In this document: positions 28,866-63,056 of the stretch, piece by piece
Numbering within the stretch: position 1 is the first letter of the stretch
Layout: each line of letters starts with the position of its first letter
Source: Candidatus Magasanikiibacteriota bacterium
GTDB taxonomy: Bacteria > Patescibacteriota > Patescibacteriia > Magasanikbacterales > GWA2-37-8
NCBI GenBank assembly: GCA_009694865.1
Contig: SICD01000001.1
Span: 403-64,402 of the forward strand
Length of the DNA stretch: 64,000 nt
Direction of reading: 5' to 3'
Translations under genes and position numbers: made by a program
The notes under the pieces: model-generated
Told to the model about the DNA's origin: nothing
Databases searched by the model: none
Seen by the model: the letters and a program-made list of their open reading frames with translations, nothing else

Positions 28866-28883
28866 AAAAAATCAAGATACGAT

Positions 28884-29067
28884 TGTCATTTCGAAGCCCC
28901 CTTCGCAGGGGGTGAGAAATCTCTGGCTCAATCACTTGTCATCCCGAGCGTAGTCGAGGGATCTCGCGTCGTTGGCGAGATTCCTCCACTTCGCTGCGCT
29001 CCGGTCGGAATGACAAACGACGGACAGAGATCCCTCGTCGGCCGCGAGGCCTCGCTCGGGATGACAG
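28884..29067. repeat. Composite or nested MITE family A element (about 185 bp) between the two gpmI paralogs
   Basis: tgtcatttcgaagcccccttcgcagggggtgag...cttgtcatcccgagcg...ggtcggaatgacaaacgacggacagagatccctcgtcgg...cgctcgggatgacag. It looks like two elements, one inside the other. Confidence 0.65.
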
Positions 29068-29070
29068 CAC

Positions 29071-30657
29071 TTACAGCAAGCTTCGTCCTGTCATTTCCTT
29101 CGGTTTCTTAATTCCCATTATTTTTAAAATCGTGGGAGACACGTCCGCCAGTTTGCCTTTTTTAAGGTTTCGAGATTTTAGCTTAAATTGTTTATGTACG
29201 GACGCAGGCGCTATAAACACAAATGGCACGGGATTTACCGAATGCTCCGTATCAACTTCGTCGGTCTTGAGGTTTACCATTTCTTCGGCATTACCATGAT
29301 CGGCGGTTATAACACATTGCCCTCCAGCCTTGAGGACACTCTGTGCCACGCGGTTAAGCTGTTTGTCAAGAATCGCAATCGCCTTTTCGGCGGCCGCAAT
29401 ATTCCCCGTGTGCCCCACCATGTCGGCATTGGCAAAATTAACCGCGATAAAATCATATTCCCGCGCTTCAATTGCTTTCACGGCGTAGGTGGCGATTTTA
29501 TCCGCTTCCATCGCCGGGTCAGTTTCAAAATCTTTCACGCGATCCGAAGCAATTTTTACCCACCGCTCATCGCCAAAATGCTGTTGGTAGCCGCCATTAA
29601 AAAAATAAGTGACGTGCGCGAACTTTTCTGATTCAGCGAGATATAATTGCCGGCGCGGACACAAAGTCTGTACCAAAGTATTAGGAATGTCACGACTCGG
29701 AAACGCTGTGAGTACACGCGGAAAATCCGGACCAAAATCCGCCATCGCCACAAACCGAGTATTTTTCGGCACAATTTTTCGATCAAACGTTCCGCCATTT
29801 TCCTTCTCAAACTGCGGATGCACAAACGCCTTCGTAATCTGCCGCGCCCGGTCACTGCGCAAATTAAAAAAGAAAATCGCGTCGTTACTTTTTATCGTCG
29901 CCACTGGTTTATTATTTTCAACAATCACCATGGGCGTAATAAACTCATCACTTTCACCAGAATTATACGCTTGCGTTAGTGCCTCTTCCGCGCTATTTGC
30001 CTGCTTACCTTTGCCTTCAACCATCGCCCGGTACGCCTTTTGTGTCCGGTGCCAAATTTTATTACGATCCATCCCGTATAACCGCCCCATCACCGTCGCA
30101 ATTTTCTCCGTGCCGTGAAAATGATTTTGTAAATGTTTAAGATGATGCGGCGCGTCGTGTTGACCAGAATCCCGCCCATCGGTAAATAAATGCAAATACA
30201 CTTTTTTAATTCCCTCCTGATGAATTAAACCCAAAAGCGCGAACAGGTGCTCCGGACAGGAATGCGCGCTGTTGTGATTCGAGAGCAATCCCATCAAATG
30301 CACCGCCGTTTTGTATTTTTTTACATGGTGCAGTGCTTCGTGAAACGCATTATTCTTAAAAAACGTACCGTCATTAATCGCATCGGTAATATACAGCGTA
30401 TCTTGTTTTACAACTCGCCCCGCCCCAATATTCAAATGCCCGGCTTCACTATTCCCCTCCTGCCCGCGCGGCAATCCGACGGCGACACCGCTCGCCTCAA
30501 GAAGAGTGTGGGGATATTTTTTCCACCAACCAAAAAAATTCGGCGCCGTTTTGGGCGTAATAGCGTTGCCCTTTTGTTTTGGGTCAGCCATGCCAAAGCC
30601 GTCGAGGATAATGAGGATGGTGATTGGTGATTTTGTAGGCATAATATTTCGTAACAA
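29071..30657 (-). CDS. gpmI: 2,3-bisphosphoglycerate-independent phosphoglycerate mutase (copy 2, a divergent paralog of 528 aa)
   Basis: GNSEAGHLNIGAGRV, ITADHGNAEE. Collinear with copy 1 but clearly diverged. Confidence 0.8.
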   Translation of the reverse strand: MLRNIMPTKSPITILIILDGFGMADPKQKGNAITPKTAPNFFGWWKKYPHTLLEASGVAVGLPRGQEGNSEAGHLNIGAGRVVKQDTLYITDAINDGTFFKNNAFHEALHHVKKYKTAVHLMGLLSNHNSAHSCPEHLFALLGLIHQEGIKKVYLHLFTDGRDSGQHDAPHHLKHLQNHFHGTEKIATVMGRLYGMDRNKIWHRTQKAYRAMVEGKGKQANSAEEALTQAYNSGESDEFITPMVIVENNKPVATIKSNDAIFFFNLRSDRARQITKAFVHPQFEKENGGTFDRKIVPKNTRFVAMADFGPDFPRVLTAFPSRDIPNTLVQTLCPRRQLYLAESEKFAHVTYFFNGGYQQHFGDERWVKIASDRVKDFETDPAMEADKIATYAVKAIEAREYDFIAVNFANADMVGHTGNIAAAEKAIAILDKQLNRVAQSVLKAGGQCVITADHGNAEEMVNLKTDEVDTEHSVNPVPFVFIAPASVHKQFKLKSRNLKKGKLADVSPTILKIMGIKKPKEMTGRSLL

Positions 30658-31055: not shown

Positions 31056-31145
31056 ATATTTTATTGATAATTTCTTAGGCACAAAATTTTGGCACCCTTG
31101 AATAAATAAAAATAGTTTAATAATTGAACAATCGAACCGTTGAAC

Positions 31146-34859: not shown

Positions 34860-34896
34860 TTATTAACAATGTAACAATTGAACAATGTAACAATTA

Positions 34897-35955
34897 TCAC
34901 TCCACATCATTCGCCAAATTAAGATAGCCGTGGTCGCTGGGCCAGCGATAATGTGTGAGGACCCATTCGGCCAAATCCCTGGCTTCGCTAAAACGCGCGG
35001 TGTTCGAATCCGTTCCCAGCACCACTACGCGCACAGCGCGATGATTATCATCGGCGAGGCGTACCGCGAAATTATAACCAGACTCGGCAATGTAGCCGGT
35101 TTTACCAACAATATTTTCCTTATCAAAATTATTAGGCACCCAATTGTTTAACAGCCAATCCGTACTCCATACCCGGCGCGCTTGCTTGCTTCCAATGGGA
35201 TGAGCATAGTACTCGCCGATTTGGAGAGCGCTATAAATTTTATCGTTTTGCAGAGCGCGCTGGAGGAGCCGTACAACATCGCTGGCGCTCCCCACGTTTT
35301 GGGGGGAGAGGCCGGTTGGTTCGACAAAATGGAGGGTACGCAAACGCCACTCTTCGACTTGACTGTTCATTTTAGTTACAAACGCTTCTTCACTTAACCC
35401 ACTTGCTCTCACCAAGGCATTAATCGCGCTGTTGGACGACCCAACCAACGCCACGTGCCATAAATCTTCCAAAGTAAAACGCTCGCCCGCACTCACACTG
35501 TGACTGCCAGGGTCAATATCATCTTGTTCTACCACGGTAGTACTCGCCCAGTTAATTGGCAACCCCTGCAAAACCAAAGCGGTCATAAGTTTTGTAATGC
35601 TGGCCAGCGGCCGGGGAACAGCGCTATTTAATTCAAACAACGGAGCATTCGTTTTATCATCCACCACAATCGCGGCCGCCGCGCTCAAACCTCCTTCGAA
35701 AGGAGTGTTCGTAGTCGCCAACGGAATCTCTGGGTGCAGCGGCAACGATGGTGGCAACACATTGTCGCCTCCCGAACTTTCCGAAAGCCGAATAGTAGGC
35801 ACCGTGCCGCTAGCCACCATTTTTATTCCCGCTACCGCCGCTAGCGGCCGAGCTGGGGTGGCATGACTAAATGTAACCGAACCAACCAATAATAAAAACA
35901 CCCCTAAAATCATGAGGCCAAAAGAAGAGAGGAAATCGGAAAATTTATTAGACAT
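34897..35955 (-). CDS. D-alanyl-D-alanine carboxypeptidase (peptidase S11 / PBP5 family)
   Basis: SxxK (ASITKLMT), SxN (GSSNSA) and KTG (GKTGYI) motifs in the expected order, with a signal peptide. Confidence 0.75.
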   Translation of the reverse strand: MSNKFSDFLSSFGLMILGVFLLLVGSVTFSHATPARPLAAVAGIKMVASGTVPTIRLSESSGGDNVLPPSLPLHPEIPLATTNTPFEGGLSAAAAIVVDDKTNAPLFELNSAVPRPLASITKLMTALVLQGLPINWASTTVVEQDDIDPGSHSVSAGERFTLEDLWHVALVGSSNSAINALVRASGLSEEAFVTKMNSQVEEWRLRTLHFVEPTGLSPQNVGSASDVVRLLQRALQNDKIYSALQIGEYYAHPIGSKQARRVWSTDWLLNNWVPNNFDKENIVGKTGYIAESGYNFAVRLADDNHRAVRVVVLGTDSNTARFSEARDLAEWVLTHYRWPSDHGYLNLANDVE

Positions 35956-41967: not shown

Positions 41968-42387
41968 TTAATAGAATTCTCTATAACGAAAAGCTCCGGG
42001 GTGCCCTTTAATATCCAACAATAGACTTTTGTGATAACCAAAATGGGATGAGGCAACCGCAAAATGCGTCTCCGCCATTTTCTTCAACAATTGTTCGTAC
42101 AGGGCTTTAGCTTTAGCCGGGCTCGCAATCGAAGATGACAAATGGACGAACGGGCTGATTAAAATATTCTGTACACCCAACTCCTCCGCTGTTTTCAGTA
42201 TCTCATGATATAAATCTACCAGCTGCTTAGTAGCATCGTCTTTCTCGGCGCAAAACAATACGCTCAAACACTGCGTCATTTTACCATTTGATCCTGAAGG
42301 ATCTTCCGGTTCAATAGCGACTGGTCGCGACGATGGTTCAACCAAGCGAGATTCAAACCGGTTAGTATGTAATAATAAAGCCCGCAT
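41968..42387 (-). CDS. Free-standing archaeal-type threonyl-tRNA synthetase editing domain (ThrRS-ed / tRNA-Thr_ED, DTD-like fold)
   Basis: MRALLLHTNRFESRLV..., ISPFVHLSSSIASP and SHFGYHKSLLLDIKGHPGAFR align with the N-terminal editing domain of archaeal ThrRS (MRVLLIHSDYIEYEV..., [34 protein letters not shown]). Confidence 0.7.
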   Translation of the reverse strand: MRALLLHTNRFESRLVEPSSRPVAIEPEDPSGSNGKMTQCLSVLFCAEKDDATKQLVDLYHEILKTAEELGVQNILISPFVHLSSSIASPAKAKALYEQLLKKMAETHFAVASSHFGYHKSLLLDIKGHPGAFRYREFY

Positions 42388-42412: not shown

Positions 42413-43714
42413 TTAGAGTACTTTTGCAAAAACACACTTTAAATACTCCCCTTCCGTAAACGCCGCCAGTTCCGGGTGGTCAATGCCGTGGGTGAATGTT
42501 TCCAGTACTTGCACAGTCCTTCCGGCCCGAGCTGCCGCCTCCGACAACATAAACCTAAAATCCTCCAGCCGCACGTGAGCCGAGCATGAGCAGGTCAAAA
42601 GAATGCCCCCTGGCGGCAAAATGCGTAAAGCCATCTCATTAATTTTCCTGTATCCTTGTAACCCTTCTTTTATTTTGTGCCGATCTTTAACAAACGCTGG
42701 TGGGTCTAAAATAATCACATCAAATTCGCCCGACTGACAATCCGTTAGATATTCCTTCACATCCGCCAAAATAAATTCGCATTTTGATTCGTCCAATTTA
42801 TTTAATTTCACATTCTCTTCGGCCAGCTCAAGTGCTGGTTGCGAAGCATCCACGCTCACCACACTCTTAGCGCCCGCGCCGAGGGCATAAACTGAAAAAC
42901 CGCCGGTATAAGAAAAACAATTCAACACTTTTTTATTCATTACATATTTTTGTAGAGCCAAACGCTTATCCCGCTGATCCAAGAAAAACCCCGTTTTCTG
43001 TCCACCAATAATATCGACCCAAAACAAATAGCCGTTCTCTTTTATCTTTACTCTCTCCGGCACTTCGCCAAAAAGCAAACCGACTTTTTCGTTGTCATTC
43101 CGAGCGAAGTCGAGGAATCCCTTGGTTTGGCCAGGAGGGATTTCTCCACTGCGCTTCGCTTCGGTCGAAATGACAGAATGTGCGCTATGCCCCGTACGAC
43201 GTCCAACATCCGACCGCTCATAAATCCCTTTTGGTTTTAAAATCTTAACGAGCGCTTTCACAATCAAATCTTTCCAATGTTCGATCCCCGGATTATGAAA
43301 CTGAACGGAAAGATACTCGGCGTATTTATCAACAATTAGCCCCGGCAACAAATCATTTTCCGCGTGGATTAATCGATACGCGTTCGTCTGTGTCCCCCTG
43401 CCCGAGGGGGACTGTAGGGGGGAGGGAGTGTTGGCGACAAAATCTTTGCGCAACTCATAAGCCCGTTTGAGGCGTTTCTCAAAAAATTCCGCGTCAACCA
43501 TCTCCTCTTTATCCCAACTCCAAATCCGCACCGCGATTTGCGAATACGAATTAAAAAAACCCTGCGCCAAAAAATTGCCTTGCTCATCGTGGAGTACTAC
43601 CGGCTCGCCGCTCGTGAGTCCTTCCGGAATATTTTTCAACGCGCCCGAAAACACCCACGGATGCCTTCCGCGAATTGGTCCAACACGTTCTTTTTTAACT
43701 ATTAGTGTAACCAT
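42413..43714 (-). CDS. rlmI: PUA-domain class I SAM-dependent rRNA (m5C) methyltransferase, RlmI-like, carrying in-frame repeat insertions
   Basis: N-terminal PUA-like VKKERVGPIRGRHPWVFSG and a SAM-methyltransferase core (...DPPAF...). MITE 43092-43176 and a GC hairpin at 43391-43410 are read through in-frame. Confidence 0.7.
   Translation of the reverse strand: MVTLIVKKERVGPIRGRHPWVFSGALKNIPEGLTSGEPVVLHDEQGNFLAQGFFNSYSQIAVRIWSWDKEEMVDAEFFEKRLKRAYELRKDFVANTPSPLQSPSGRGTQTNAYRLIHAENDLLPGLIVDKYAEYLSVQFHNPGIEHWKDLIVKALVKILKPKGIYERSDVGRRTGHSAHSVISTEAKRSGEIPPGQTKGFLDFARNDNEKVGLLFGEVPERVKIKENGYLFWVDIIGGQKTGFFLDQRDKRLALQKYVMNKKVLNCFSYTGGFSVYALGAGAKSVVSVDASQPALELAEENVKLNKLDESKCEFILADVKEYLTDCQSGEFDVIILDPPAFVKDRHKIKEGLQGYRKINEMALRILPPGGILLTCSCSAHVRLEDFRFMLSEAAARAGRTVQVLETFTHGIDHPELAAFTEGEYLKCVFAKVL
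43092..43176. repeat. MITE family A copy inserted in-frame within rlmI
   Basis: ttgtcattccgagcgaagtcgaggaatcccttggtttggccaggagggatttctccactgcgcttcgcttcggtcgaaatgacag. Confidence 0.65.
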
Positions 43715-43809
43715 AAGAATGCACGCATTATACCATTTTTAGGCCTAAAAAACAAGAGACGCCTTCAAGGCGTCTCTACTTTAATAGACCTGATAACTTT
43801 ATGAACTTG

Positions 43810-44688
43810 CTACTTGTTCACTTGCTCCGCTACTTCCGCCACAAAATCTTTCGTTACCTTCTCAATCCCCTCGCCCAATTCGTATCGAACGAATCGGACA
43901 ATCGTCGCGCCTTTGCCCTTGGCCAGGTCGCCCACCTTCACATCTTCGTTCTTAATGAACGCTTGTTCCAGCAAAGTAACATCACTATAAAATTTATCTA
44001 TTTTACCTTTAAGAATATTTTCAATAATATTCTCCGGCTTGCCCGCTGCTTTAAGCTGGGCGGCGTACACATCACGTTCGCTTGCAAGTAAAGCGGCATC
44101 AACGCCCGAACGATCCAAAGCCTTAGGGTTACTGGCGGCCACATGCATAGCCACGTCGGTGCCAAGTTCCGCGTCACCACCAGTCATTTCAATCATGACG
44201 CCAATTTTACTGCCGTGTAAATATGAGTACACTTTTCCGACACTTGACTCGTAGCGCGTAAACCGGCGCACGCTAATTTTTTCACCGATTTTTAAGGTGA
44301 GATTATTCGCAGTTTCGCCGACGGTTCCGCCAGCCCCGAGTTTGGTGTTTTGGAGAGCGTCAACATCAACTGGATTTTCTTTCGCCACAACTTCTGCCAC
44401 GCTTTTGGCAAACGCTCCAAAATCCGCACTCTGTCCCACAAAATCCGTTTCACAATTTACCTCAACCAAAACCCCCGCTTTGCTGTCAACGGAAATAAAA
44501 CTAGCAACCAACCCTTCGGCCGCCACCTTGTCGGCCCGCTTGGCCGCTTTAAGAATTCCTTTTTTGCGCAAAAGATCAACGGCTTTGTCCATATCGCCAC
44601 CCGCCTCTTCCAACGCGTTTTTACAATCCATCATGCCCGCCCCAGTAGAATTCCGGAGCTTCATGACGTCAGAAGCACTTATTGTCAT
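43810..44688 (-). CDS. tsf: Elongation factor Ts
   Basis: N-terminal UBA-like VMKLRNSTGAGMMDCKNALEEAGGDMDKAVDLLRKKG and a duplicated EF-Ts core. Confidence 0.9.
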   Translation of the reverse strand: MTISASDVMKLRNSTGAGMMDCKNALEEAGGDMDKAVDLLRKKGILKAAKRADKVAAEGLVASFISVDSKAGVLVEVNCETDFVGQSADFGAFAKSVAEVVAKENPVDVDALQNTKLGAGGTVGETANNLTLKIGEKISVRRFTRYESSVGKVYSYLHGSKIGVMIEMTGGDAELGTDVAMHVAASNPKALDRSGVDAALLASERDVYAAQLKAAGKPENIIENILKGKIDKFYSDVTLLEQAFIKNEDVKVGDLAKGKGATIVRFVRYELGEGIEKVTKDFVAEVAEQVNK

Positions 44689-44690
44689 AT

Positions 44691-44800
44691 AATTTCAAAT
44701 ATCAAAATCCAAATGTCAAACCAAGTTCAAAATCCAAAAACCAATTTTTGACATTATGGCTTTGGATTTGATTTGGCATTTGACATTTGTCGTTTGGATT
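44691..44800. repeat. Leader repeat family C (aaatccaaatgtcaaa / tttgacatttg motifs) between rpsB and tsf. A related copy lies upstream of rplY at 52700-52830.
   Basis: caaaatccaaatgtcaaaccaagttcaaaatccaaaaacc...ggatttgatttggcatttgacatttgtcgtttggattttt. It contains TTGACA motifs in the sense orientation of tsf. Confidence 0.55.
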
Positions 44801-44801
44801 T

Positions 44802-45668
44802 TTAAACAACCTCTTGCGTTTTAATCACCCGGCGTTCTTTTTTAGAAGCGTACGGAGTAACTGACTCGGCCGGAATAGCGCTGGCCACAATTTTAGGCAT
44901 CGCGGCCGCTACTTTAACTTCCCCGCCCGAGGCGGGTCCGCCTTGGGAGGATTGCTCTTTAAGCAAAGCTTTAGTTTTTTCATAATCTGCCTTGCCTTCT
45001 TTCACCGCTTCAGCCATTAAATTCACTATCATCTTAATGGAATTCACCGCGTCATCATTCGCGGGAATGGCATAATTAACTTTGGTAGGGTCAACATTGG
45101 TGTCGCAAACTGCCACCATGGGAATATTCAAACGCACCGCTTCAGCCACCGCGGTTTTTTCTACCCGCAAATCAGCAATATACAAAGCGTCCGGTAATTT
45201 TTCCAGAGTTACCAAACCAGCCAAATACTTTTCCATTTTCTCAACTTGTTTTTGAAACACTACCTGTTCTTTTTTCGTGTACTTTTCAATTTCACCAGTC
45301 GCGAACATTTCTTTAATACCTTTATACTTCTTCATGCGACGTTTAAACTCATCAAAATTGGTTATGAGTCCGCCAATCCAGCGTTCGGTTAAGTACGGCA
45401 TACCACAATCGAGCGCGGCCACTTTAACCAATTCGCGCGCCTGGCGCTTGGTGCCAACAAATAAAATAACCTTGCCTTTAGCGGCGAGGTCGTGCACGTA
45501 CTGGAGCGCGCTTGCGAGTTGCTCCAAAGTTTTGTCTAAATCAATCACGTGCACGCCATTACGCAGACCAAAAATATAGGGCTGCATTTTAGGGTGCCAG
45601 CGTGACCGTTGGTGGCCAAAATGGACGCCTGCTTTAAGCATTTCCATGAGGCTTGGTAGCTGTGTCAT
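44802..45668 (-). CDS. rpsB: 30S ribosomal protein S2
   Basis: MLKAGVHFGHQRSRWHPKM and ...ITNF.... There is a C-terminal extension. Confidence 0.9.
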   Translation of the reverse strand: MTQLPSLMEMLKAGVHFGHQRSRWHPKMQPYIFGLRNGVHVIDLDKTLEQLASALQYVHDLAAKGKVILFVGTKRQARELVKVAALDCGMPYLTERWIGGLITNFDEFKRRMKKYKGIKEMFATGEIEKYTKKEQVVFQKQVEKMEKYLAGLVTLEKLPDALYIADLRVEKTAVAEAVRLNIPMVAVCDTNVDPTKVNYAIPANDDAVNSIKMIVNLMAEAVKEGKADYEKTKALLKEQSSQGGPASGGEVKVAAAMPKIVASAIPAESVTPYASKKERRVIKTQEVV

Positions 45669-45805
45669 AATATTTTTTTCCTTATTACTCCTCTCAACCT
45701 AACCCACGGGAATGGCCCAGGGAGGAAAATGTCCGCCAAAAGCGGAGGTTGATGAGATATTTAAAGTATCATCAGTATATAGGAAAACTAAGAATCAGTC
45801 AAGTC

Positions 45806-45834
45806 TTGACACCCCCAGCGAGTAATGTTATACT
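45806..45834 (+). promoter_or_regulatory. Sigma70-like promoter TTGACA-N17-TATACT upstream of rpmE
   Basis: ttgaca at 45806-45811, a 17-nt spacer, tatact at 45829-45834. Confidence 0.5.
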
Positions 45835-45855
45835 CTTTTCACTTATAAAAATCAT

Positions 45856-46164
45856 ATGAAAACCAAAATTCATCCCGAATATCATACCGATTGCCAAGTC
45901 ACCTGCGCTTGCGGTAATAAATTCGTAACCGGCTCCACACTAAAAGAACTTCGCGTGGAACTGTGCAACCAATGCCATCCTTTTTATACCGGCAAACAAA
46001 AATTCGTTGACACCGCCCGCCGCGTCGAAAAGTTTGAGGAAAAAATGGGCAAAGTAAGCGCTGTCGCCGCCAGTCGCAAAGGCAAAAAAGTAAAAAAGGC
46101 CGTCGCAACTGCTAAAAAGGAAGCGAAGAAAAAGGAAGCCAAAACCGCCGCGACCGAAAAATAG
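45856..46164 (+). CDS. rpmE: 50S ribosomal protein L31 with a Lys/Ala-rich C-terminal extension
   Basis: [28 protein letters not shown]...[12 protein letters not shown], with a 30-aa basic tail. Confidence 0.8.
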
Positions 46165-46222
46165 CTAAAATTTTCAAAACAGACTATACTATTGTTAGTC
46201 TGTTTTTGTTTAGTATTTCACT

Positions 46223-46336
46223 TGTCATCCCGAGCGAGGCTCGCGCCGACGAGGTCTCGCGATCCCTCGTAGGGGAATCTCTGTCCGTCGGTTGTTGATT
46301 GAGCCAGAGATTCCTCCTTCGTCGTCGGAATGACAA
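46223..46336. repeat. MITE family A copy abutting the prfA start codon
   Basis: cttgtcatcccgagcgaggctcgcgccgacgaggtctcgcgatccc...cttcgtcgtcggaatgacaa. The prfA ATG is 4 nt after the element. Confidence 0.7.
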
Positions 46337-46339
46337 TTG

Positions 46340-47422
46340 ATGACCGACCATGAAAAATATATGCTCGCCAAGTACTCGCATCTCTTAACCAAGTTCAAAT
46401 CCCTCGAAACCTCTTTGCAAAATCCAGAGGTTATTAATGATGCCAAAAAATTAAAGGACGCCTCCCAGGAATATACCGATATGAAACCGGTCGCGGAAAA
46501 AATCTCTGAATTGTATTCAATTGAAAAGAATATTGCCGAGACAGATTTAATGCTCGCGAGCGATGGTGATACCGAAATACAAAACTTGGCCACTGGCGAG
46601 CTACTCGAACTCCGAGACAAAAAAACCGCTCTGGAAACCAAACTCGCCGACCTCACCCGCCCTCAAGACCCCCTTAATAAAAAAAATGTGATTGTGGAAA
46701 TTAGGGCCGCGGCCGGGGGCGACGAATCGGCCCTATTCGCGGCCGAGCTGTTCCGCATGTATTCCAAATACGCGGAAAGTAAAAAATGGAAAACCTCGTT
46801 TATCGATTCCAGTCAAATTGGCATTGGCGGATTTAAAGAAGTGCTTTTTTCGGTTAAGGGGCATGACGTCTACAAAGATTTAAAATGGGAAATGGGCGTG
46901 CACCGCGTGCAACGCGTGCCCGAAACCGAAAAAGCCGGCCGGGTGCACACCTCCACCGTAACGGTAGCGGTGATGCCCGAAATTGAGGAAACTGAATTAA
47001 AAATTGATCCTAAAGACTTGCGTATCGACACCATGACCGCCGGCGGCCACGGCGGGCAGAGCGTGAATACCACCTATTCGGCGGTGCGCATTGTGTATAT
47101 TCCCACCGGTATGATTGTACAATGTCAGGATGAGCGTAGCCAGCAAGCCAACCGGGAAAAAGCCATGGCGGTACTCCGCGCGCGCCTGTTTGACATTGAA
47201 CGAGCCAAAAAAGCAGAGGAACTATCGGCCAAACGCCAAGCGCAAATCGGCACCGGCGATCGCAGTGAAAAAATCCGTACCTACAACTTCCCCCAAGACC
47301 GCATTACCGACCACCGAATTCATGCCAGCTGGAATAATATTGGCACGATTTTAGAAGGCAACTTAGAGCCAATTATTACCGCGCTACAAAAAGCGGAGCA
47401 TGAACAACAAGACAAAGATTAA
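46340..47422 (+). CDS. prfA: Peptide chain release factor 1
   Basis: GGQ motif [18 protein letters not shown], and an RF1-type PxT tripeptide region [18 protein letters not shown]. Confidence 0.9.
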
Positions 47423-47455
47423 AAGACTGGAAGATTACAAGATTGCCATTTGACA

Positions 47456-47470
47456 CAATCTTCTAATCTT
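47456..47470 (+). repeat. Left 15-bp direct repeat (caatcttctaatctt) flanking high-GC cassette B
   Basis: It is identical to 47937-47951. The extended similarity is gattgcca...caatcttctaatctt versus gattgtcgcaatcttctaatctt. Confidence 0.7.
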
Positions 47471-47525
47471 TTGATCTTTCTCTGATCAAACCGCGCCAGC
47501 GGATTCTGGAATTTTGGAGGGAAAC

Positions 47526-47831
47526 ATGCCGGGACCGGGAGTAAGTCGTTGGCACCGAGTGCTGCTGGCACTCGATCTGTGCGTCGAGCAAGTGCGAATG
47601 GCGCTGTCATTGCCGGCGCCGGGAAACATCGAGTTGATTCGTCTCCAGCATCGCTGGGTGCGGAGAAGGCTCGGACTGGAAAGGCGGCATGAGGCTGTTA
47701 TCTTTTGGTTCGATGGCGGAAAGACCGGCATCTGCCAAATGTGTAACGAAGACGTGGCTTTCGAGCAGGGGGGAAGCCACCCGACCAATTGCCCGGGCCC
47801 GCCCAACACCACCGACCGTTCTGGCCGGTGA
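47526..47831 (+). CDS. Small hypothetical Cys-containing protein (101 aa) on high-G+C cassette B
   Basis: ggagg at 47516-47520 precedes the ATG at 47526 (MPGPGVSRWHRV...CQMCNEDV...NCPGPP). It is G+C-rich and has its own terminator at 47865-47897. The antisense ORFs 47419..47610 and 47486..47812 are rejected. Confidence 0.5.
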   Translation: MPGPGVSRWHRVLLALDLCVEQVRMALSLPAPGNIELIRLQHRWVRRRLGLERRHEAVIFWFDGGKTGICQMCNEDVAFEQGGSHPTNCPGPPNTTDRSGR

Positions 47832-47864
47832 AGAGCGATGCCGGCGCTAACCCCGGCTCATCCA

Positions 47865-47897
47865 AAAACAGCTTTTTTAAAAGGCTGTTTTTGTTTG
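47865..47897 (+). terminator. Rho-independent terminator of cassette B
   Basis: aacagc-ttttttaaaag-gctgtt followed by tttgttt. Confidence 0.5.
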
Positions 47898-47936
47898 CGT
47901 TGACTGAAGTGTGGTGGTACAGTACGATGATTGTCG

Positions 47937-47951
47937 CAATCTTCTAATCTT
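47937..47951 (+). repeat. Right 15-bp direct repeat (caatcttctaatctt) flanking cassette B, 8 nt upstream of the prmC ATG
   Basis: Identical to 47456-47470. Confidence 0.7.
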
Positions 47952-47958
47952 AAAATTC

Positions 47959-49083
47959 ATGCCAACTATCAAAATTTTACAAAAACGATACCATAGCCAA
48001 ATAAACGAGCTTGACTTTAGCATTCTTCTCGCTCACGCTATTAACAAACCGCGAGAATTCCTCTACGCTCACCCCAACTTTCCGCTTTCCGCTTTCGCCT
48101 ACGCGCGCCTAAGGTATTTTTTGTTTCACTACAAACGCGGCTATTCCGTTGCCGCCATTACCCACCATAAAGAATTTTACGGGTTAAATTTTTATGTGAA
48201 CAAAGACACCCTCATCCCCCGCCCCGAAACTGAACTGCTGGTTGAAGAAGCCATTGCGGCAATTAAAACCCCCCCCTCGCGGGGGGGCTCGGGGGGGTGT
48301 TGGCTCATCGACGTTGGCACTGGGAGCGGGTGTATTCCAATCACGATCGCCACACACCTCAATTGTCATCCTGAGCGCAGCGAAGGATCTCTGTCTCAAT
48401 CGGGAGCGGACAGAGATTCTTCGATCGCTAAGCTCCCTCAGAATGACAGTTTAAAAATATTTGCGACGGACATTTCTAAATCAGCGCTTCGCGTCGCCCG
48501 TAAAAACGCTCGAATACAAAATGTATCCATAAACTTTTTACACGGTAACCTCCTCGAACCGTTCGTAAAACAGATCAACACCGCAACACATCAACACCGC
48601 AACACTTTAACAATTGAACAATTGAACAATCAAACTATTATAATAACAGCAAATCTTCCGTATCTTACTCCGATTCAATTCGAAGCCGAACCAAGTATCC
48701 AACGCGAACCTCGCTCCGCCTTGGTTGCGGAAAATAGCGGCCTCGCATTGTACGAAAAATTGTTACAACAAATTTCTCATCTTTCTCCGTCTGTCATTTC
48801 GACGACACGTTCGCTACGCTCAGTGCAGGCTCCGGAGGAATCTCTGGCTCAATCGGCAAAACGGACAGAGATTCCCCTACGAGGGATCGCGAGACCTCGT
48901 CGGCCGCGAGACCTCACTCGGAATGACAAACTAAAAATGATCATTTTTTTCGAAATCGATCCTTCCCAAACACAAAAAATATCCTCTCTCGTAAAAACCT
49001 ATCTTCCTTTGGCCTCTATCGAAATAAAAACCGACCTCGCGGGGCGAGATCGGGTGGTGAAAATTAACCTTACGTTACCTTAG
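47959..49083 (+). CDS. prmC: Release-factor glutamine N5-methyltransferase (PrmC/HemK) carrying three in-frame repeat insertions
   Basis: NLPY variant of NPPY (ITANLPYLTP) and a SAM-binding motif IDVGTGSGCI. The product is about 90 aa longer than typical PrmC. The extra segments coincide with hairpin 48271-48287, MITE 48364-48449 and MITE 48792-48929. Confidence 0.75.
   Translation: MPTIKILQKRYHSQINELDFSILLAHAINKPREFLYAHPNFPLSAFAYARLRYFLFHYKRGYSVAAITHHKEFYGLNFYVNKDTLIPRPETELLVEEAIAAIKTPPSRGGSGGCWLIDVGTGSGCIPITIATHLNCHPERSEGSLSQSGADRDSSIAKLPQNDSLKIFATDISKSALRVARKNARIQNVSINFLHGNLLEPFVKQINTATHQHRNTLTIEQLNNQTIIITANLPYLTPIQFEAEPSIQREPRSALVAENSGLALYEKLLQQISHLSPSVISTTRSLRSVQAPEESLAQSAKRTEIPLRGIARPRRPRDLTRNDKLKMIIFFEIDPSQTQKISSLVKTYLPLASIEIKTDLAGRDRVVKINLTLP
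48364..48449. repeat. MITE subfamily A2 copy in-frame within prmC
   Basis: attgtcatcctgagcgcagcgaaggatctctgtctcaatcgggagcggacagagattcttcgatcgctaagctccctcagaatgacag. Confidence 0.65.
48792..48929. repeat. MITE family A copy in-frame within prmC
   Basis: ctgtcatttcgacgacacgttcgctacgctcagtgcaggctccggaggaatctctggctcaatcgg...gggatcgcgagacctcgtcggccgcgagacctcactcggaatgacaa. Confidence 0.65.
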
Positions 49084-51708: not shown

Positions 51709-51722
51709 AGGGTAAATTCAGT

Positions 51723-51839
51723 GCGTCATTGCGAGCGAGATAATTGTGGTCGTCCCGACGGCGGTCGGGACAATCCCTTCGTTTTAAGAAGTTTTTAAGC
51801 TAGGGGATTGCCACGTCGCTTCGCTCCTCGCAATGACGC
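51723..51839. repeat. MITE-like element, subfamily A3 (termini gcgtcattgcgag...ctcgcaatgacgc)
   Basis: gcgtcattgcgagcgagataattgtggtcgtcccgacggcggtcgggacaatccc...ggggattgccacgtcgcttcgctcctcgcaatgacgc. Confidence 0.65.
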
Positions 51840-53944: not shown

Positions 53945-55468
53945 TCAGTGGGATACCGCTCGCCGCGGGACAATTTGTCTCGTTCTTCGTTTTCTATGAA
54001 ACGTAATCGCGAACCGGTGCGCTTCGTCGCGAACCTGAATTAATAATCTCTGATGCCGAGTAACCCACGCAATAAATTCCGGACTCTTATCTCCTAAAAT
54101 TATATCGTTACGTTTGCGCTCTCTCCCTTTGGCAATACCGACGATTGGAATTCTGCGCACAGACGCATTGCTATGCGTCTCTACAAAGTTCCGCGCCCGA
54201 CTCACTTGCGGCCGTCCCCCGTCAATCAAAATGACATTTGGGAACTGCCATTCCGCGTGCTTAAACCGGCGCTCCAAAACTTCTGCCAATGAATCAACAT
54301 CACTCTGCCCAAAAACAGTTTTAATAATAAACTTTCGATACTCCGATTTCACCGGACCCTCCTCATTAAACACCACCATACTCCCCACTTTTTCGGAAGC
54401 ACCTAAGTTGGAAATATCATAACCTTCGATTCGGAGCTTCCTCTCCCCCCGAGCCCCCTCTCTGGCAGAGGGGGACACACCGCCTCCCCCTCTTTCTAAG
54501 AGGGGGCGTGGGGGAGTTGCCGTCGCCGTGTCAACAAAACTCTTATTCAAAAGCGCAATATCCTGAATTCTACGCAGAGAGTGTAATTGGTCACGCAGTC
54601 TCGCCGCGTCTTCAAACCGCTCGTCTTTCCCCGCCCGCTTCATCTCCATTTCAAAAATTTTAATAACCTGCTTTTTCCGACCTGACAAAAATGTCACCAG
54701 CGGCCGAATGATCTGCCGTCGATACTCGGCTGAACTAATCTCACCCGTGCACACCCCCGGACACCACCCCATTTGGCGATACAGGCACACTCGACTTCCA
54801 GGCACACAATTACTAAACCGAAACATCCGCCGCAACAACTTCATCGCCGCCTTCGTATTCAACCCCGGATACGGCCCAAAAACATAGGCAAAGGCGTCAT
54901 CACGAGCGAGCTTAAGGCGAGCGTCGTGATCCCCTTGCTGTAAAAACTTATTTAGTTCGGGGGATTGCGACGTCGCTGCGCTCCTCGCAATGACGCTGTA
55001 CTCCCGCTCCCGCATTGTCAAAACTTTTGGATATTCGTCTTTGCTGACGAGAATATAATTCCAACTCTTATCATCCTTTCCATCCACATTATACTTGGGC
55101 TGGAATTTTTTAATGTACTCCGCTTCCAAAATAATCGCCTCAAGCGCCGACTCGGTCTCCTTCCACTTAATATCTACCACCTCATGAATCATTCCCTCAA
55201 TCGGACGACTCACAACCGCACTGTCATTCTGAGCGGAGGCTCGCGCCGTAGTCGAAGAATCCCTCTCACCGTGGTAAGGGGATTTCTCCACTTCGTTCCT
55301 TTGTCGCTGTGGTCGGAATGACAATCGAAAATACGACCGCACCCGACTCCGGAGCGACGTCGCCTTGCCCACATACACCAATTCTTTTTGGGAATTATAA
55401 AAAAGATATACCCCCGGCGAATCTGGCAAACTAACTAAAATTTTACCGACACCATCTGCCTTATCCAT
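53945..55468 (-). CDS. uvrC: Excinuclease ABC subunit C, with in-frame repeat insertions
   Basis: GIY-YIG N-terminus (PGVYLFYNSQKELVYVGKA) and a UvrC RNaseH-like/endonuclease C-terminal region. The hairpin cluster 54425-54520, the A3 half-element 54959-54995 and MITE 55221-55324 are all translated in-frame. Confidence 0.85.
   Translation of the reverse strand: MDKADGVGKILVSLPDSPGVYLFYNSQKELVYVGKATSLRSRVRSYFRLSFRPQRQRNEVEKSPYHGERDSSTTARASAQNDSAVVSRPIEGMIHEVVDIKWKETESALEAIILEAEYIKKFQPKYNVDGKDDKSWNYILVSKDEYPKVLTMREREYSVIARSAATSQSPELNKFLQQGDHDARLKLARDDAFAYVFGPYPGLNTKAAMKLLRRMFRFSNCVPGSRVCLYRQMGWCPGVCTGEISSAEYRRQIIRPLVTFLSGRKKQVIKIFEMEMKRAGKDERFEDAARLRDQLHSLRRIQDIALLNKSFVDTATATPPRPLLERGGGGVSPSAREGARGERKLRIEGYDISNLGASEKVGSMVVFNEEGPVKSEYRKFIIKTVFGQSDVDSLAEVLERRFKHAEWQFPNVILIDGGRPQVSRARNFVETHSNASVRRIPIVGIAKGRERKRNDIILGDKSPEFIAWVTRHQRLLIQVRDEAHRFAITFHRKRRTRQIVPRRAVSH
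54959..54995. repeat. Half copy of MITE subfamily A3 in-frame within uvrC
   Basis: gggggattgcgacgtcgctgcgctcctcgcaatgacgc. Confidence 0.55.
55221..55324. repeat. MITE family A copy in-frame within uvrC
   Basis: ctgtcattctgagcggaggctcgcgccgtagtcgaagaatccctctcaccgtggtaaggggatttctccacttcgttcctttgtcgctgtggtcggaatgacaa. Confidence 0.65.
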
Positions 55469-57260: not shown

Positions 57261-60092
57261 CTATTTAAGCACACGTTTAAGGTATTGCCCGGTGAAAGAA
57301 GCGGATTTCTTAGCAACTTCTTCCGGTGTCCCGCTGGCAACAACCTCACCCCCCTTATCCCCCCCCTCCGGCCCCAAATCAATAATCCAATCCGCGCATT
57401 TAATCACATCCAAATTATGTTCAATCACCATCACGGTATTCCCTTGTCCAACAAGTCGTTGGAGCACATCAAGCAACTTCCGCACATCATCATAATGCAA
57501 ACCCGTCGTCGGCTCATCCAGCAAATACAACGTCTTAGTCGTGCCGTGTTTTGCCAACTCCCGGCTAAGTTTAATCCGCTGTGCTTCCCCGCCCGACAGC
57601 GTCGTTGCCGATTGTCCCAAGGTTAAATAATCCAACCCCACCTCATTTAACATTTTCAATTTATCTTCCACCAGCGGAATATCTTTAAAAAACTCTTCCG
57701 CGTCTTCAATTGTCATGTTCAAAACATCCGAAATATTCTTGTCTTTATAATGCACCTGTAAAATTTCGTTGGTAAACCGTTTGCCGCGGCACACATCACA
57801 AATAATTTGCACGCTCGGCAAGAAATGCATCTCAATTTCTAAATTTCCTCGGCCTTCACAGTTTTCACAACGCCCACCTGGGACGTTAAAGCTAAATTTA
57901 CCAGATTTGTACCCCCGAATTTTTGCCTCTGGAGTTGACGCGAATAATTCCCGAATAAAATCGAAGGCTTTCGTATACGTCGCCGGGTTACTACGCGGCG
58001 TGCGCCCAATCGCGCTCTGGTCAATCGTAATCATCCGATCAATATATTCGGTCCCGGTGATTTCCAAATGCTTGCCGACCGATTTATTAAGACGAAATAA
58101 ACGATTGTTAATCGAGCGATGCAAAATATCGTGCATTAAAGTAGATTTTCCCGATCCGGAAACACCGGTAAGGCATACAAACCGTCGCAGAGGAATCTCC
58201 ACGGTAATATTTTTCAAATTATGTTCCGTCGCTTTCTTAATTTTAATTTTCGGCGTCGCCCCATCTACTTTCCGTCGCTTTTCGGGTACAGGAACTTTTA
58301 ATTCGCCGCGGAGGTATTGGCCGGTGAGAGATTTTGCTGGGTCGCCTTGGGTAGCGGCAAATACGGACTGCCCCCTCGAGGGGGCCTCACGGGGGTGTAA
58401 GACCGCTGCGTGGCCGTTTCGACTTCGCTCAAGGCCACCCTGAGCAAGGTCGAATTGGTGGCGGTCGTCGATTGAGCGACGCAAAGGACTCACACCCCCC
58501 CGAACGCCCTGCGGGGCGCCCCCCTCGAGGGGGGATTTGGCGAGCATCACCTCTAACGGCCCCGAAAACACCACTTCCCCACCATGCTTCCCCGCCCCCG
58601 GTCCAATGTCCACAATCCAATCACTCACCATAATCGTATCCTCATCATGCTCCACAACAATAATGGTATTCCCCACATCACACAAATTCCGGAGCGTCCT
58701 CACTAGTCGGTCGTTATCCCGTTGATGCAACCCAATCGTTGGTTCATCCAGTACATACAAAGCACCAACCAGTCGCGTGCCCACTTGTGATGCTAACCGA
58801 ATACGCTGTGCCTCACCTCCCGACAGAGTGCCCGCTTTCCGATTAAGTGTTAGATAATGCAAACCAACATCAAACATGAACTGCAAACGATTGCAGACTT
58901 CCTTCAATACCGCCCCGGCAATTTCGCGTTGCGTTTCCGGCAATTCCATATCCACGCTCGCAAAAAATTCCCGCGCTTCGGCAATCGATAAATTTGTTAC
59001 TTCCCAAATATTTTTATCCACCACTTTCACGCTCAAGGCCGTGGCGTTTAACCGCTTGCCTTTACACACCGGACACTCTTCTTCACTGAATAATTCTTTA
59101 GTGCCCAAACCAGTACACGCTTGGCAATAACCATAAGGACTGTTAAAACTAAACAACCGCGGTTCAATTTCCGGAAAACTAAAACCATCTTTAGGGCAAG
59201 AATATTCGGTGCTATAAATATGTTCCTCGCCGCTGGGGTACAAGACCGTACAAAGGCCGTTGGAAAGTTCCACCGCATTGGCTACTGCTTCGCCCAAACG
59301 CTGTTCAACGTCTTTCTTTGTCATCCCGACAGAGGCTCGCGCCGACGAGGTCGAAGATCCTCCGAGGAGGAGATCTCTGTCTATCGTTTGGTGAGCCAGA
59401 GATTTCTCCTTCGCCGTCGAAATGACAGACAACGCTGCCATTGGAATTTTATCAACAATTACTTCAATAGTATGTTTATCATTTTTTTCTAAAATAACCC
59501 GTTCACGCAAACTTTTTATATTGCCATCCACTCGCACCTCTAAATATCCGGAATTATAAACATCATACAACATCTGATAATATTCGCCTTTGCGTCCGCG
59601 TACTACCGGAGAAAATAAAATTAATTCAGGAGCCTTTTTTGTTTTCCCACCATCTTGTTTTAGTGCTTTTTTAATTTTTTCTATCATCTGATCGGTCGTC
59701 ATTTTCTGAATTTTCGTGCCACAAAGCGGACAATGCGGCTCGCCTACTCGGGCAAATAAAACACGGAGATAATCATAAATCTCCGTGATCGTCGCCACGG
59801 TGGAACGCGGATTCGCACTGTGCGCTTTTTGATCGATCGAAATTGCCGGCGACAACCCTTCAATTTCATCCACATCCGGCTTTTGCATGCCACCCAAAAA
59901 CTGCCGCGCGTAAGCCGACAAACTTTCAATATACCGCCGCTGACCTTCCGCAAAAATCGTATCAAAAGCCAAGCTCGATTTTCCCGAACCTGATAATCCT
60001 GTAAACACAATCATTTTATTCCGCGGCAGTTCCAAATTAATATTCTTGAGATTGTGTTCTCGCGCCCCTTTGATTATAATTTTGTCTTGCAT
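57261..60092 (-). CDS. uvrA: Excinuclease ABC subunit A, with in-frame repeat insertions
   Basis: The start [20 protein letters not shown] is the canonical UvrA N-terminus (ATG at 60090-60092). It has two ABC ATPase modules and zinc-finger Cys clusters. MITE 59318-59428 and the two ccccctcgaggggg hairpin regions at 58371-58384 and 58519-58534 are translated in-frame. Confidence 0.9.
59318..59428. repeat. MITE family A copy in-frame within uvrA
   Basis: ttgtcatcccgacagaggctcgcgccgacgaggtcgaagatcctccgaggaggagatctctgtctatcgtttggtgagccagagatttctccttcgccgtcgaaatgacag. Confidence 0.65.
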
Positions 60093-60570: not shown

Positions 60571-62931
60571 CTACCCATTGCCCCCGACCACTCGGTCGGG
60601 TTTTTTATTAGAGAGCGCTTTGATTTTCGGCGTTCCCGAAACTTTCACCCTCGTCCGCAATTCCCGCAACTCATCCCTGAGTATCGCCGCCAACTCAAAC
60701 TCTAACCCCTTCGCCGCCTCCCGCATCTGTTTCTCTTTATCTTTAATAATTTCCTCCATCGGCCGCGCATCGCCGAGCAAATCCAAATCAAGAGTTGAAA
60801 TCGCTCCGGTGCGGCCTTTTAGCCCTCTCCCGGCTCTCGCGCCTTTTGAGCCTTTAGCATTTCCCCCATCTCGACTAACACCAAACTCTTCGAGAATATT
60901 CCTAATTGTTTTTTCAATCGTCTTCGGCGTAATGCCATGTTCTTTATTATACGCCAACTGAATTGTGCGACGACGGTCTGTTTCTTTAATCGCTCGTTCC
61001 ATGGAACCCGTCATATTATCCGCATACAACACTACTTGCCCATTCACATTCCGCGCCGCCCGGCCAATCGTCTGAATGAGTGACGTTTCACTGCGCAAAA
61101 ATCCTTCTTTATCCGCGTCTAAAATTGCCACCAGTGATACCTCGGGCATGTCAAGCCCTTCGCGCAACAAGTTAACCCCCACCAACACATCATGTTTACC
61201 CAGCCGCAAATCCATAATAATCTCAATCCGTTCCAACGTGAGCACATCACTATGAATATACGCCACTTTAATTTTTTTCTCTTTTAAATACTCCGTTAAA
61301 TCCTCCGCCATTTTTTTCGTGAGGGTGGTCACGAGCACTCGCTCACCCTGCTTAATCCGTTCGTCGATGCGGATAAGGAGGTCCTCGACTTGCGACTTTC
61401 CTAAATTGTCATTCTGAGCCCCGTCAGGGGTGGCCGAAGAATCTTCCTTTTTTCTATTCGGAAGATCCTTCGCTCCGCTCAGGATGACATTTTTATTTTT
61501 ACCGGTGATGGGCCTCACCACCACCTCTGGATCAATCAACCCCGTCGGCCGCACCACCTGCTCCACAACTTGCTCACTTTCCTTAATTTCATAGGGTGTT
61601 GGCGTAGCAGACACGTACACAAGCTGTCCCACACGCTCTTCAAATTCCTTATACTGAAGCGGCCGATTATCACGCGCACTGGGAAGACGAAAACCATGCT
61701 CAACCAGAGTATCTTTGCGTGCCCGGTCGCCATTATACATCCCTCTGATTTGAGGAACGGTAACGTGGGACTCGTCGATGATGGTGAGGAACCCCCGAGA
61801 CATCCCCTCACCCGACCTCTCCCGCGGGGAGAGGAGGCGCTTCCCCTCGCCCCGCGGGAGAGGGACGGAGGGTGAGGGTTCGGTCGCACTATACCTAAAA
61901 TAATCCAACAACGTAAACGGCGGCTCCCCTTCCGCGCGCCCTTCAAAATGCCGCGAATAATTTTCAATGCCGTTGCAATACCCAATATTTTTTATCATCT
62001 CCAAATCATACGCCACTCGCCGCTTTAACCGTTCATATTCCAAAACTTTCCCCTGCCGTTCAAACACCGCGAGTTGTTCGTCGAGCTCGCTTTTGATTCT
62101 CGCAAACGCCTGTTGACGAGAGGCCTCACTCACCACATAATGCTTCGCCGGAAAAAACCAAACATCAGACTCGCGCCTGATGTTTGTCCTGAGGCCGCGC
62201 ACGGCCGAAGGACCCCTCTCATCAACATCCGAACTAGCAAGAACCGCCCGAGTAACACGATCTAATTTTTCAATTCGGTCGATATGGCTCGAGATCTCGA
62301 ATCGATAAATCGCATCCTCATTCACCGGCATTATTTCAAACACCTGCCCGTGCAACCGAAAACTGCCCCGCTTTAGTTCGCTGTTCGTCCGCTCAAATTG
62401 CATCGCGACCAATTGTTCCAACATCGCCCGCCGATCAAGTTCATCCCCCCGTCGCAAATGCAAAACAATTTTTTCATATTCTTTAGGAGACCCCAAACCG
62501 TAAATCGCCGAAACCGATGCCACAATAATAACATCCCGCCGCGTCAACAACGCCTGCGTACACGCATGCCGCAACCGATCAATCTCCTCGTTCACCTGCG
62601 CCTCTTTTTCAATATAAGTATCACTCCCCGGCATATACGCCTCGGGCTGGTAGTAATCATAATAACTAACAAAATATTCTACCGCGTTATCAGGAAAAAA
62701 TTCCCGAAATTCATTACACAACTGCGCCGCCAAAGTTTTGTTATGCGCAATAACAAGCGTTGGCATTTGCACCTGTTGAATCACATTCGCCATCGTAAAG
62801 GTCTTTCCCGAACCGGTTACGCCAAGCAATGTCTGCTTCCGCATTCCCTGCTCCAAACCCAAAACAAGCCTTTCAATGGCTTTGGGCTGGTCTCCATCTG
62901 GCTGGTATTTTGATTTTATTTTGAATTGCAT
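60571..62931 (-). CDS. uvrB: Excinuclease ABC subunit B, with in-frame repeat insertions
   Basis: The start [22 protein letters not shown] is the UvrB N-terminus (ATG at 62929-62931). Helicase motifs GVTGSGKT and the C-terminal UVR domain are present. MITE 61406-61490 and the family-B element 61803-61877 are read through in-frame (...[26 protein letters not shown]...). Confidence 0.9.
61406..61490. repeat. MITE subfamily A2 copy in-frame within uvrB
   Basis: ttgtcattctgagccccgtcaggggtggccgaagaatcttccttttttctattcggaagatccttcgctccgctcaggatgacat. Confidence 0.65.
61803..61877. repeat. Palindromic element family B copy in-frame within uvrB
   Basis: tcccctcacccgacctctcccgcggggagaggaggcgcttcccctcgccccgcgggagagggacggagggtgaggg. 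Nearly identical to 6747-6824. Confidence 0.65.
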
Positions 62932-62972
62932 GCTGTATGTGTCATTGCGAGGAGGAAAAAATCTACCGCCGA

Positions 62973-63056
62973 CTGTCATCCTGAGTCGGAGCGAAGGATC
63001 TAGTTCGATCAAAATGGCTTACCGACTAGATTCTTCATTTCATTCAGAATGACAGC
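62973..63056. repeat. MITE subfamily A2 copy (intergenic, between uvrB and xerC/D). A partial A3 terminus (tgtgtcattgcgagg) lies at about 62937-62951.
   Basis: ctgtcatcctgagtcggagcgaaggatctagttcgatcaaaatggcttaccgactagattcttcatttcattcagaatgacag. Confidence 0.65.

Follow-up and report, generated by a model that had tools for sequence, protein, structure and literature searches.

The DNA examined here is a window of 64 kb from a contig of Candidatus Magasanikiibacteriota, a bacterium of the candidate phyla radiation (CPR, Patescibacteria); it holds 51 genes at a coding density of 0.888. Between positions 42413 and 49083 the gene order is rlmI, on the minus strand, then tsf, rpsB and rpmE, then prfA, an orphan open reading frame (ORF) of 101 aa and prmC. 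The coding sequences of rlmI and prmC, and likewise those of uvrA, uvrB and uvrC in the same window, carry short palindromic repeats in frame, and identical sequences lie scattered between genes.

The gene rlmI (42413-43714, minus strand) was intact and encodes a 433-aa homolog of the 23S rRNA m5C1962 methyltransferase, with Pfam domains PUA_3 and Methyltrans_SAM and a match to the solved structure 3c0k (YccW/RlmI) at E = 2e-90; the protein was 100% identical to the NCBI entry P0121. As an earlier note on this DNA had proposed, it carries one MITE, or miniature inverted-repeat transposable element, and one hairpin in frame. The former is an 83-nt element bounded by a pair of terminal inverted repeats (TIRs) at 43093-43175 (minus strand), which reads HSVISTEAKRSGEIPPGQTKGFLDFARND and folds at -36.5 kcal/mol (z = -4.4). 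The latter is a 36-nt insertion at 43394-43429 (minus strand), which reads TPSPLQSPSGRG and contains a CCCCC..GGGGG hairpin (43394-43410), one of a class of nine copies. The closest RlmI ortholog (P0122, 392 aa, 86% amino acid identity) had neither insert, and a DNA alignment with its gene (locus L124) left two clean gaps, one of 87 nt, corresponding to the 83-nt element plus 4 nt, and one of 36 nt, corresponding to the hairpin. Gaps fell exactly at the repeats also in the alignment with the solved homolog. The AlphaFold2 model of RlmI showed a confident core. Its predicted local distance difference test score (pLDDT) dropped below 50 at residues 170-209, the TIR insert, and was about 61-65 in the hairpin insert, modelled as a loop between helix 75-94 and strand 112-116.

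Four repeat-derived segments were found in prmC (47959-49083, plus strand), an intact gene encoding, from the NCBI start, a 374-aa release factor N5-glutamine methyltransferase (HemK in PDB) that matches its NCBI entry at 100% identity. Pfam found its N-terminal domain (PrmC_N) only and missed the methyltransferase domain. The protein exceeds the median length of its 120 closest homologs, 291 aa, by some 83 aa, close to the 90 or so extra residues given in the earlier note. These had been traced to a hairpin and two TIR elements; they do coincide with them, and a fourth repeat-derived stretch at 48591-48641 had been overlooked. In order along the plus strand, the first segment is a C8..G7 hairpin (48269-48287) that reads PPSRGGSGG and adds about 7 aa relative to E. 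coli HemK. In the model it lies between helix 91-103 and strand 114-119, and residues 108-110 have a pLDDT below 50. This hairpin is followed by an 85-nt TIR element (48364-48448; -37.9 kcal/mol, z = -3.9; pLDDT below 50 at 140-160) and by the stretch at 48591-48641, built on a AACAATTG-type octamer of family D1 and reading about TATHQHRNTLTIEQLNNQ, which forms a variable loop among homologs (pLDDT below 50 at 211-216). The last is a 137-nt TIR element (48792-48928; VISTTRS...LTRND; -53.6 kcal/mol, z = -3.4; pLDDT below 50 at 278-322). The core of the PrmC model superposed on the HemK structures 2b3t (RF1 complex), 1t43 and 1nv8 with template modelling scores of 0.79-0.82, normalised by target, and the alignment with HemK again had its gaps exactly at the repeats. 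Mapped onto the two models, the inserts thus appeared as low-confidence loops between confident secondary-structure elements. The ratio of nonsynonymous to synonymous substitution (dN/dS) was 0.05 for rlmI, compared with L124, and 0.16-0.24 for prmC, both figures being obtained at saturated synonymous sites. Conservation and models together suggest that the host genes are functional and under purifying selection. In a syntenic relative (L125, 20.8 kb) there was not a single TIR copy, PrmC had 276 aa, and prfA and prmC overlapped.

The TIR elements form a family. The 11-mer TGTCATTCCGA, allowing up to two mismatches, matched the window 49 times against 16.5 expected, a number that none of 100 shuffles reached. 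Pairing of plus- and minus-strand matches yielded 17 full elements of 79-183 nt, occupying 2.8% of the window, with termini TGTCATYCYGA..TCRGRATGACA, each of them a long imperfect palindrome. The coordinates given before for the elements in rlmI, upstream of prfA and twice in prmC were each reproduced within 1 nt, and all eight intergenic copies listed with them (2628, 6151, 7585, 28884, 35965, 39503, 51723 and 62973) were found. TIRs bounding a short (below about 300 bp), multi-copy, non-coding unit are one of the defining traits of a MITE, and this is the architecture observed. As RNA, the intragenic copies folded at -36 to -54 kcal/mol with z = -3.4 to -4.4. At 28884-29066 one copy (28937-29015) is nested within another, and the copy upstream of prfA is 100% complementary over 44 nt to the prmC copy at 48861-48904. 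Besides this family, the window held nine C5-8..G5-8 hairpins against 0.26 expected; these resemble repetitive extragenic palindromic (REP) sequences, but have no consistent GTAG or CGTC flank, a CGTC start occurring in one copy only. An 80-nt palindrome, CCCCTCACCC..GGGTGAGGGG (family D5), had two copies, 6748-6827 and 61803-61882, which were 90% identical. The octamer motif of family D1, in frame in prmC, recurred intergenically at 31109-31143 and 34863-34897. Rfam, run on the whole window at the gathering threshold and on two sub-regions with E up to 1, returned only chance-level miRNA and sRNA matches and no known RNA family, and Pfam matched none of six insert-encoded peptides.

Each of the three excision repair genes contained at least two in-frame repeats, all on the minus strand. 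Compared with solved UvrA, the uvrA product has 43 additional residues (226-268), which correspond to a 109-nt TIR element (59319-59427). A second in-frame insertion of about 213 nt (58335-58547, residues 525-595), lying between two CCCCCTCGAGGGGG hairpins of family D14, likewise forms a gap against that structure. In uvrB, the 33 aa inserted at residues 506-538, when compared with solved UvrB, correspond to an 83-nt TIR element (61407-61489), and the D5 palindrome at 61803-61882 is read in frame as residues 373-405. The 102-nt TIR element of uvrC (55222-55323; LSFRPQRQ...SAQNDS) lies within the Pfam GIY-YIG match, and a second in-frame repeat is found at about 54897-54995. Pfam identified GIY-YIG, UVR and RNase H-like domains in this UvrC homolog (53945-55468), which NCBI labels 'hypothetical protein' (MSU74938.1); the label may be due to the two interrupting repeats. 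A related Magasanikbacterium (L001) had a 572-aa UvrC ortholog with two 134-nt TGTCATTGCGA-type elements in frame (4465-4598 and 5080-5213), and another copy of that type ended 59 nt upstream of its prmC.

Full TIR copies were depleted from genes: 6 of the 17 are intragenic (one each in rlmI, uvrA, uvrB and uvrC, two in prmC), against a coding fraction of 0.888 (binomial p = 2e-7). All six were free of stops in the host frame, compared with 9 open frames out of 60 in the intergenic copies. In the frames not used by the host, the intragenic copies were open in 10 of 30 cases against the same 9 of 60 (Fisher p = 0.057), a difference that is confounded by their shorter length and is suggestive only. 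Among the gene pairs flanking intergenic copies there was no split gene. The earlier note pointed out that the intragenic copies sit in genes of translation and repair; with 51 genes in the window a specific preference for these classes is at most a possibility, although the same bias has been reported for REPs (PMC3733652). The structure of the element itself bears on the frame. Its 5' end is open in all three frames (CH.., VI.., SFR..), and at its 3' end one frame reads GAA TGA, so that entry frame and element length modulo 3 must match. The six intragenic copies obeyed this rule, VI..ND with a length of 2 mod 3, CH..ND with 1, SFR..ND with 0 and VI..GMT with 1. The earlier note had proposed that insertion is frequent and that copies last where they leave the frame open. 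This idea stood up to the comparison of intragenic with intergenic copies in the window, and the low dN/dS and the empty-site ortholog agree with it. The widespread disruption of host genes that would have turned the case into simple pseudogenisation was not seen in the window, where no gene pair next to an intergenic copy looked split and host dN/dS ranged from 0.05 to 0.24.

These observations also bear on whether the inserts reach the protein at all. They could be removed in the manner of introns or bypassed by the ribosome, or the host genes could be pseudogenes or assembly artefacts. Intervening sequences are a known feature of rRNA genes in the CPR, the contiguous translation of the inserts is read off the DNA, and assemblies of metagenome-derived genomes can mis-join repeats. 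Removal or bypass, however, would leave nothing to keep the inserts in frame and stop-free, yet all of them are, and Rfam gave no intron or ribozyme. A dN/dS far below 1 does not suit pseudogenes, and the same architecture occurred in hundreds of homologs from other assemblies and in a second assembly of the locus, an ENA contig with identical gene lengths. We therefore regard an untranslated or artefactual origin of the inserts as very improbable.

Comparison with the 120 closest homologs each of PrmC and RlmI, 240 in total, extended the observation to related proteins. Inserts of at least 12 aa clustered at about four sites in PrmC and three in RlmI, site 160-171 of RlmI being occupied in about 25% of the homologs. 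This clustering in the same few loops is in line with the model of frequent insertion and open frames. Many of these inserts showed the entry and exit peptides of the family (VILSEAK.., VIPSE.., CHPE.., ..RND, ..QDD). The 137-nt element of prmC had no counterpart in any of the 120 homologs. The codon site of the 85-nt element, in contrast, was also occupied in the three closest orthologs, and there the inner stem differed on both arms (CTCTGTC..GACAGAG vs CTAGTT..AACTAG), both subfamilies being present elsewhere in the window. The same codon site is thus taken by different element subfamilies in three species. The termini of these elements were 86-94% identical and their coding flanks 68-80%. 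Neutral decay of one old insertion does not match this pattern, which is compatible with separate insertions at a hot spot or with an old insertion that conversion with other copies has kept uniform.

The loops concerned vary in length across homologs, and the second PrmC insert is common to four related proteins, so that one might see in the inserts ancient lineage-specific variable loops that are repeat-like by composition only. This explanation is already contradicted. Both TIRs are present, identity to intergenic copies reaches 100% over 44 nt, the ortholog with 86% identity has empty sites, and conservation is higher in the element termini than in the coding flanks, which are saturated. 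We give it hardly any credence.

We favor, with a probability of about 0.8, the explanation that these sequences are non-autonomous, hairpin-forming mobile repeats, spreading recently or still, which are retained in genes only where they are tolerated. Evidence for mobility comes from the empty sites of rlmI in L124, from the absence of copies in L125 and from the nested copy. Three kinds of repeat would take part, the MITE-like TGTCATYCYGA..TCRGRATGACA family, the REP-like G+C hairpins and the 80-nt palindrome. Copies landing in genes would mostly be lost, and those retained would be the ones with a net gain of a multiple of three, no stop in the host frame and a position in a loop between secondary-structure elements; both steps find direct support in the data. 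Expression of the host gene would then include the surviving copies, in the mRNA and in the protein, where they would add 7-46 aa at the surface, probably disordered, to an enzyme that still works. The sequence of the element itself may limit the frames that can be used, and the same permissive loops may be hit, or re-homogenised, repeatedly in related lineages. Some points weigh against this explanation. Only six full intragenic TIR copies from a single 64-kb window make up the sample, and the ENA assembly may share its reads with the NCBI one. Most of the TIR-to-TIR lengths (83, 85, 137, 102, 109 and 83 nt) cannot be divided by three, which puts the exact boundaries, or later compensating indels, in question. 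Translation of the inserts, although probable, is deduced from sequence, and the activity of the host enzymes is argued from their conservation. As no target-site duplication was seen at the copies inspected and no autonomous partner was found in the window and 123 further loci, the MITE label describes the architecture.

The intergenic copy next to prfA deserves separate consideration. The gene (46361-47422, plus strand; Pfam PCRF and RF-1) encodes release factor 1, with 353 aa from the NCBI start at 46361 (MSU74931.1). The ENA gene call uses an alternative start at ATG 46340, giving 360 aa. The N-termini of orthologs, MLSKFTQLL vs MLAKYSHLL, support the start at 46361. A 113-nt TIR element occupies the rpmE-prfA spacer (46223-46335, plus strand; -50.5 kcal/mol, z = -2.3). 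The earlier note had it end 4 nt before the prfA ATG, and this is true of the first in-frame ATG at 46340; the conserved, NCBI-annotated start lies 25 nt away, behind an A-rich spacer. Upstream, rpmE is followed by a probable intrinsic terminator read from the sequence (46178-46210, plus strand), AAACAGACTA..TAGTCTGTTT and then a T run, which was absent from the scanner's list probably because its loop of about 9 nt, judged by eye, exceeds the scanner's limit of 8 nt. On the plus strand between this terminator and the prfA starts, the sole sigma-70-like match scored 9/12, with the element end as its -35 box. Such a hybrid promoter, in which the element end would supply ATGACA and AAAAAT would follow after a spacer of 17 nt, was rejected, its -10 box ending 2 nt before ATG 46361 and being too close to serve it. 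Given the conserved start, the A-rich spacer of 25 nt and the lack of a placed promoter, initiation of prfA on a structured leader, as had been suggested, is only plausible. The copy is one of the ordinary intergenic ones, lying between rpmE and prfA, with a possible effect on prfA expression.

TIR elements also ended 8 nt before uvrB (62931-63054, the true start being ATG 62931), 19 nt before gpmI (28866-28894) and 15 nt before a DUF3048 gene (51709-51734). These positions may reflect chance, given the short spacers, or an effect on expression. Most genes had no Shine-Dalgarno sequence, and TATAAT-like boxes stood about 7-20 nt upstream of several ATGs (rlmI, rpmE, the tRNA-Thr_ED-domain gene at 41968-42387 and others), which suggests that leaders are very short or absent.

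Proximity to starts is one of several features that would be expected if the inserts had been exapted, for instance to tune the mRNA structure of prfA and prmC, to pause ribosomes, to offer RNase III sites or to modify the repair enzymes. The folds of the elements are very stable, element ends lie 4-25 nt upstream of the starts of prfA, uvrB, gpmI and the DUF3048 gene, and many lineages carry inserts in the same loops. A bias towards uvrABC recurs in the literature, where a role was speculated for REP-tagged uvr genes (PMC3733652). Such functions would, however, sit poorly with the complete lack of inserts in the closest RlmI ortholog and in the syntenic relative, and with insert peptides that vary by lineage in family, length and sequence and are predicted to be disordered; identical sequences are, moreover, scattered intergenically. 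Exaptation thus seems to us an unlikely explanation.

Several further features of the region were noted. The spacer between prfA and prmC, genes that overlap or lie 110 bp apart in relatives, contained a G+C-rich insert of about 480 bp (47471-47950, about 60% G+C by eye), with the 15-nt direct repeat CAATCTTCTAATCTT on either side (47456-47470, 47936-47950). Within this insert are the 101-aa ORF (47526-47831), a strong terminator (47863-47893) and, rare in this genome, a Shine-Dalgarno sequence, GGAGG. Pfam gave no match for the ORF, which had a single homolog, 48% identical, in 1.8 billion representatives and is essentially an orphan. A nitroreductase-like ORF of 390 aa contains the other copy of the D5 palindrome (6748-6827); the palindrome encodes peptides of the PSP..GEG type, which were also present in PrmC and RlmI homologs. 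The nested TIR pair separates two adjacent full-length iPGM (gpmI) paralogs, 27219-28865 and 29071-30657, whose DNA segments are about 70% identical. In another locus (L003), inverted copies of the AACAATTG-type motif (about 2480-2520 and 2905-2940) flank a 23S_rRNA_IVP (four-helix-bundle) gene between rpmE and prfA.

As to how the elements move, no direct repeat was seen at the flanks of 16 copies, at the nested copy 28937-29015 or in the rlmI empty-site comparison. A common target motif was not found either: the empty site of rlmI has a TIR-like CGGAAT, and the prmC empty site of L125 has nothing alike. The window and 123 further loci were searched for TIR pairs with a spacing of 0.6-4 kb, which revealed no transposase unit except a degenerate Y1-like (Y1_Tnp) ORF in locus L020, where a solo element end lies at a distance of about 100 nt. 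By tblastn, no further Y1 gene near an element was found in these loci, and the window has none. A Y1 transposase of the REP-associated (RAYT) type was considered as the mobilising enzyme and rejected, its three intact relatives (L126-L128) being flanked by a different palindrome, GGCTGCCCCACCC..GGGTGGGGCAGCC. In these metagenome contigs, RayT-like genes lie between inverted copies of that hairpin, at 1893-1943/2588-2638 (L126), 1890-1941/2569-2621 (L127) and 1857-1940/2532-2928 (L128). The copies of L128 are in tandem, and the arrangement is TIRtron-like and unrelated to the TGTCAT element.

The element is not restricted to this window. The exact pattern of both termini occurred in at least 119 stretches of the GTDB species representatives (596 Gb), for which we estimated a chance expectation of about 0.13. 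The phyla among the matches listed were Acidobacteriota, Chloroflexota, Bacteroidota, Proteobacteria, Verrucomicrobiota, Gemmatimonadota, Planctomycetota, Bacillota and others, and in the genomes among these listed matches at most 11 of 125 copies were possibly intragenic. A full-text search for the terminal sequences returned only unrelated primers, and the literature search as a whole yielded neither a paper on the element nor a name for it; no report of in-frame palindromic repeats in CPR bacteria was found there. Tentatively, and short of endorsing it as a whole, we put forward that the TGTCATYCYGAGCG..CTCRGRATGACA palindrome could represent an undescribed superfamily of mobile elements across many phyla including CPR, one that in Magasanikbacteria-like CPR might be an ongoing major source of lineage-specific loop insertions. 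The same proposal would have the loops colonised independently or homogenised by conversion, with insertion proceeding without target duplication and by an unknown enzyme. If it were true, part of the 'CPR-specific protein insertions' would be repeat-derived.

Irrespective of that proposal, in-frame repeats explain the oversized PrmC, RlmI and UvrABC of this lineage and their escape from domain models, and they provide a concrete source of lineage-specific protein loops. The recurrent use of the same loops maps out, in nature, the places at which these enzymes permit insertions. The termini shared across phyla point to an element family that annotation pipelines now turn into spurious ORFs; their distribution, together with the recurrence of hot spots in loops, most deserves to be followed.

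The present elements can be compared with several known systems. The classic case of in-frame palindromic repeats in genes is that of the Rickettsia palindromic elements (RPEs; Ogata et al. 2000, 2002), as described in two later papers (PMC10969869, PMC3733652). As with RPEs, we observed short palindromic mobile repeats that lie both intergenically and in frame in unrelated, intact housekeeping genes of a small genome. The defining trait of an in-frame palindrome in many unrelated functional ORFs was seen in rlmI, prmC, uvrA, uvrB and uvrC. In these accounts RPE inserts, too, are thought to occupy positions that the fold can accommodate. There are also differences from what is described there. 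The host belongs to the CPR and not to the Alphaproteobacteria, the TGTCAT..ATGACA ends recur in many phyla whereas RPEs were described from Rickettsia, and most inserts, at 83-137 nt, fall short of the roughly 150 nt of RPEs. The relation to RPEs would thus be one of functional analogy, not of family membership.

A second parallel is found in the GTAG/CGTC-tagged REPs, which Di Nocera et al. (2013, PMC3733652) reported as single or dimeric repeats in frame in uvrA, uvrB, uvrC, uvrD, polA and recBCD, where they encode 20-82 aa; the hosts were Opitutus terrae, R. conorii, Thauera and Thioalkalivibrio. The in-frame repeats of uvrA, uvrB and uvrC are common to both cases. Unlike these REPs, however, the TIR elements end in TGTCAT and the hairpins have no consistent tag, and, unlike RAYT-mobilised REPs and the REPINs formed from them, no Y1 gene accompanies the elements in the window, the Y1 genes of L126-L128 being flanked by other hairpins. 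Classical bacterial MITEs (Correia/NEMIS, ERIC, RUP, BOX; PMC10969869) resemble the present family in their TIRs, their length of 80-180 nt, their non-coding nature, their many copies, their stable RNA hairpins and their occasional in-frame fusions to ORFs. They differ in that neither a target-site duplication nor a parent insertion sequence was found here (window and 123 loci), in the unusually high intragenic share of 6 out of 17, and in the conservation of the termini across phyla. All in all, the tolerance of in-frame repeats suggests itself as a general property of small, compact genomes. In-frame palindromic repeats are a phenomenon already known, to which the present work adds the TGTCAT element and a CPR host.

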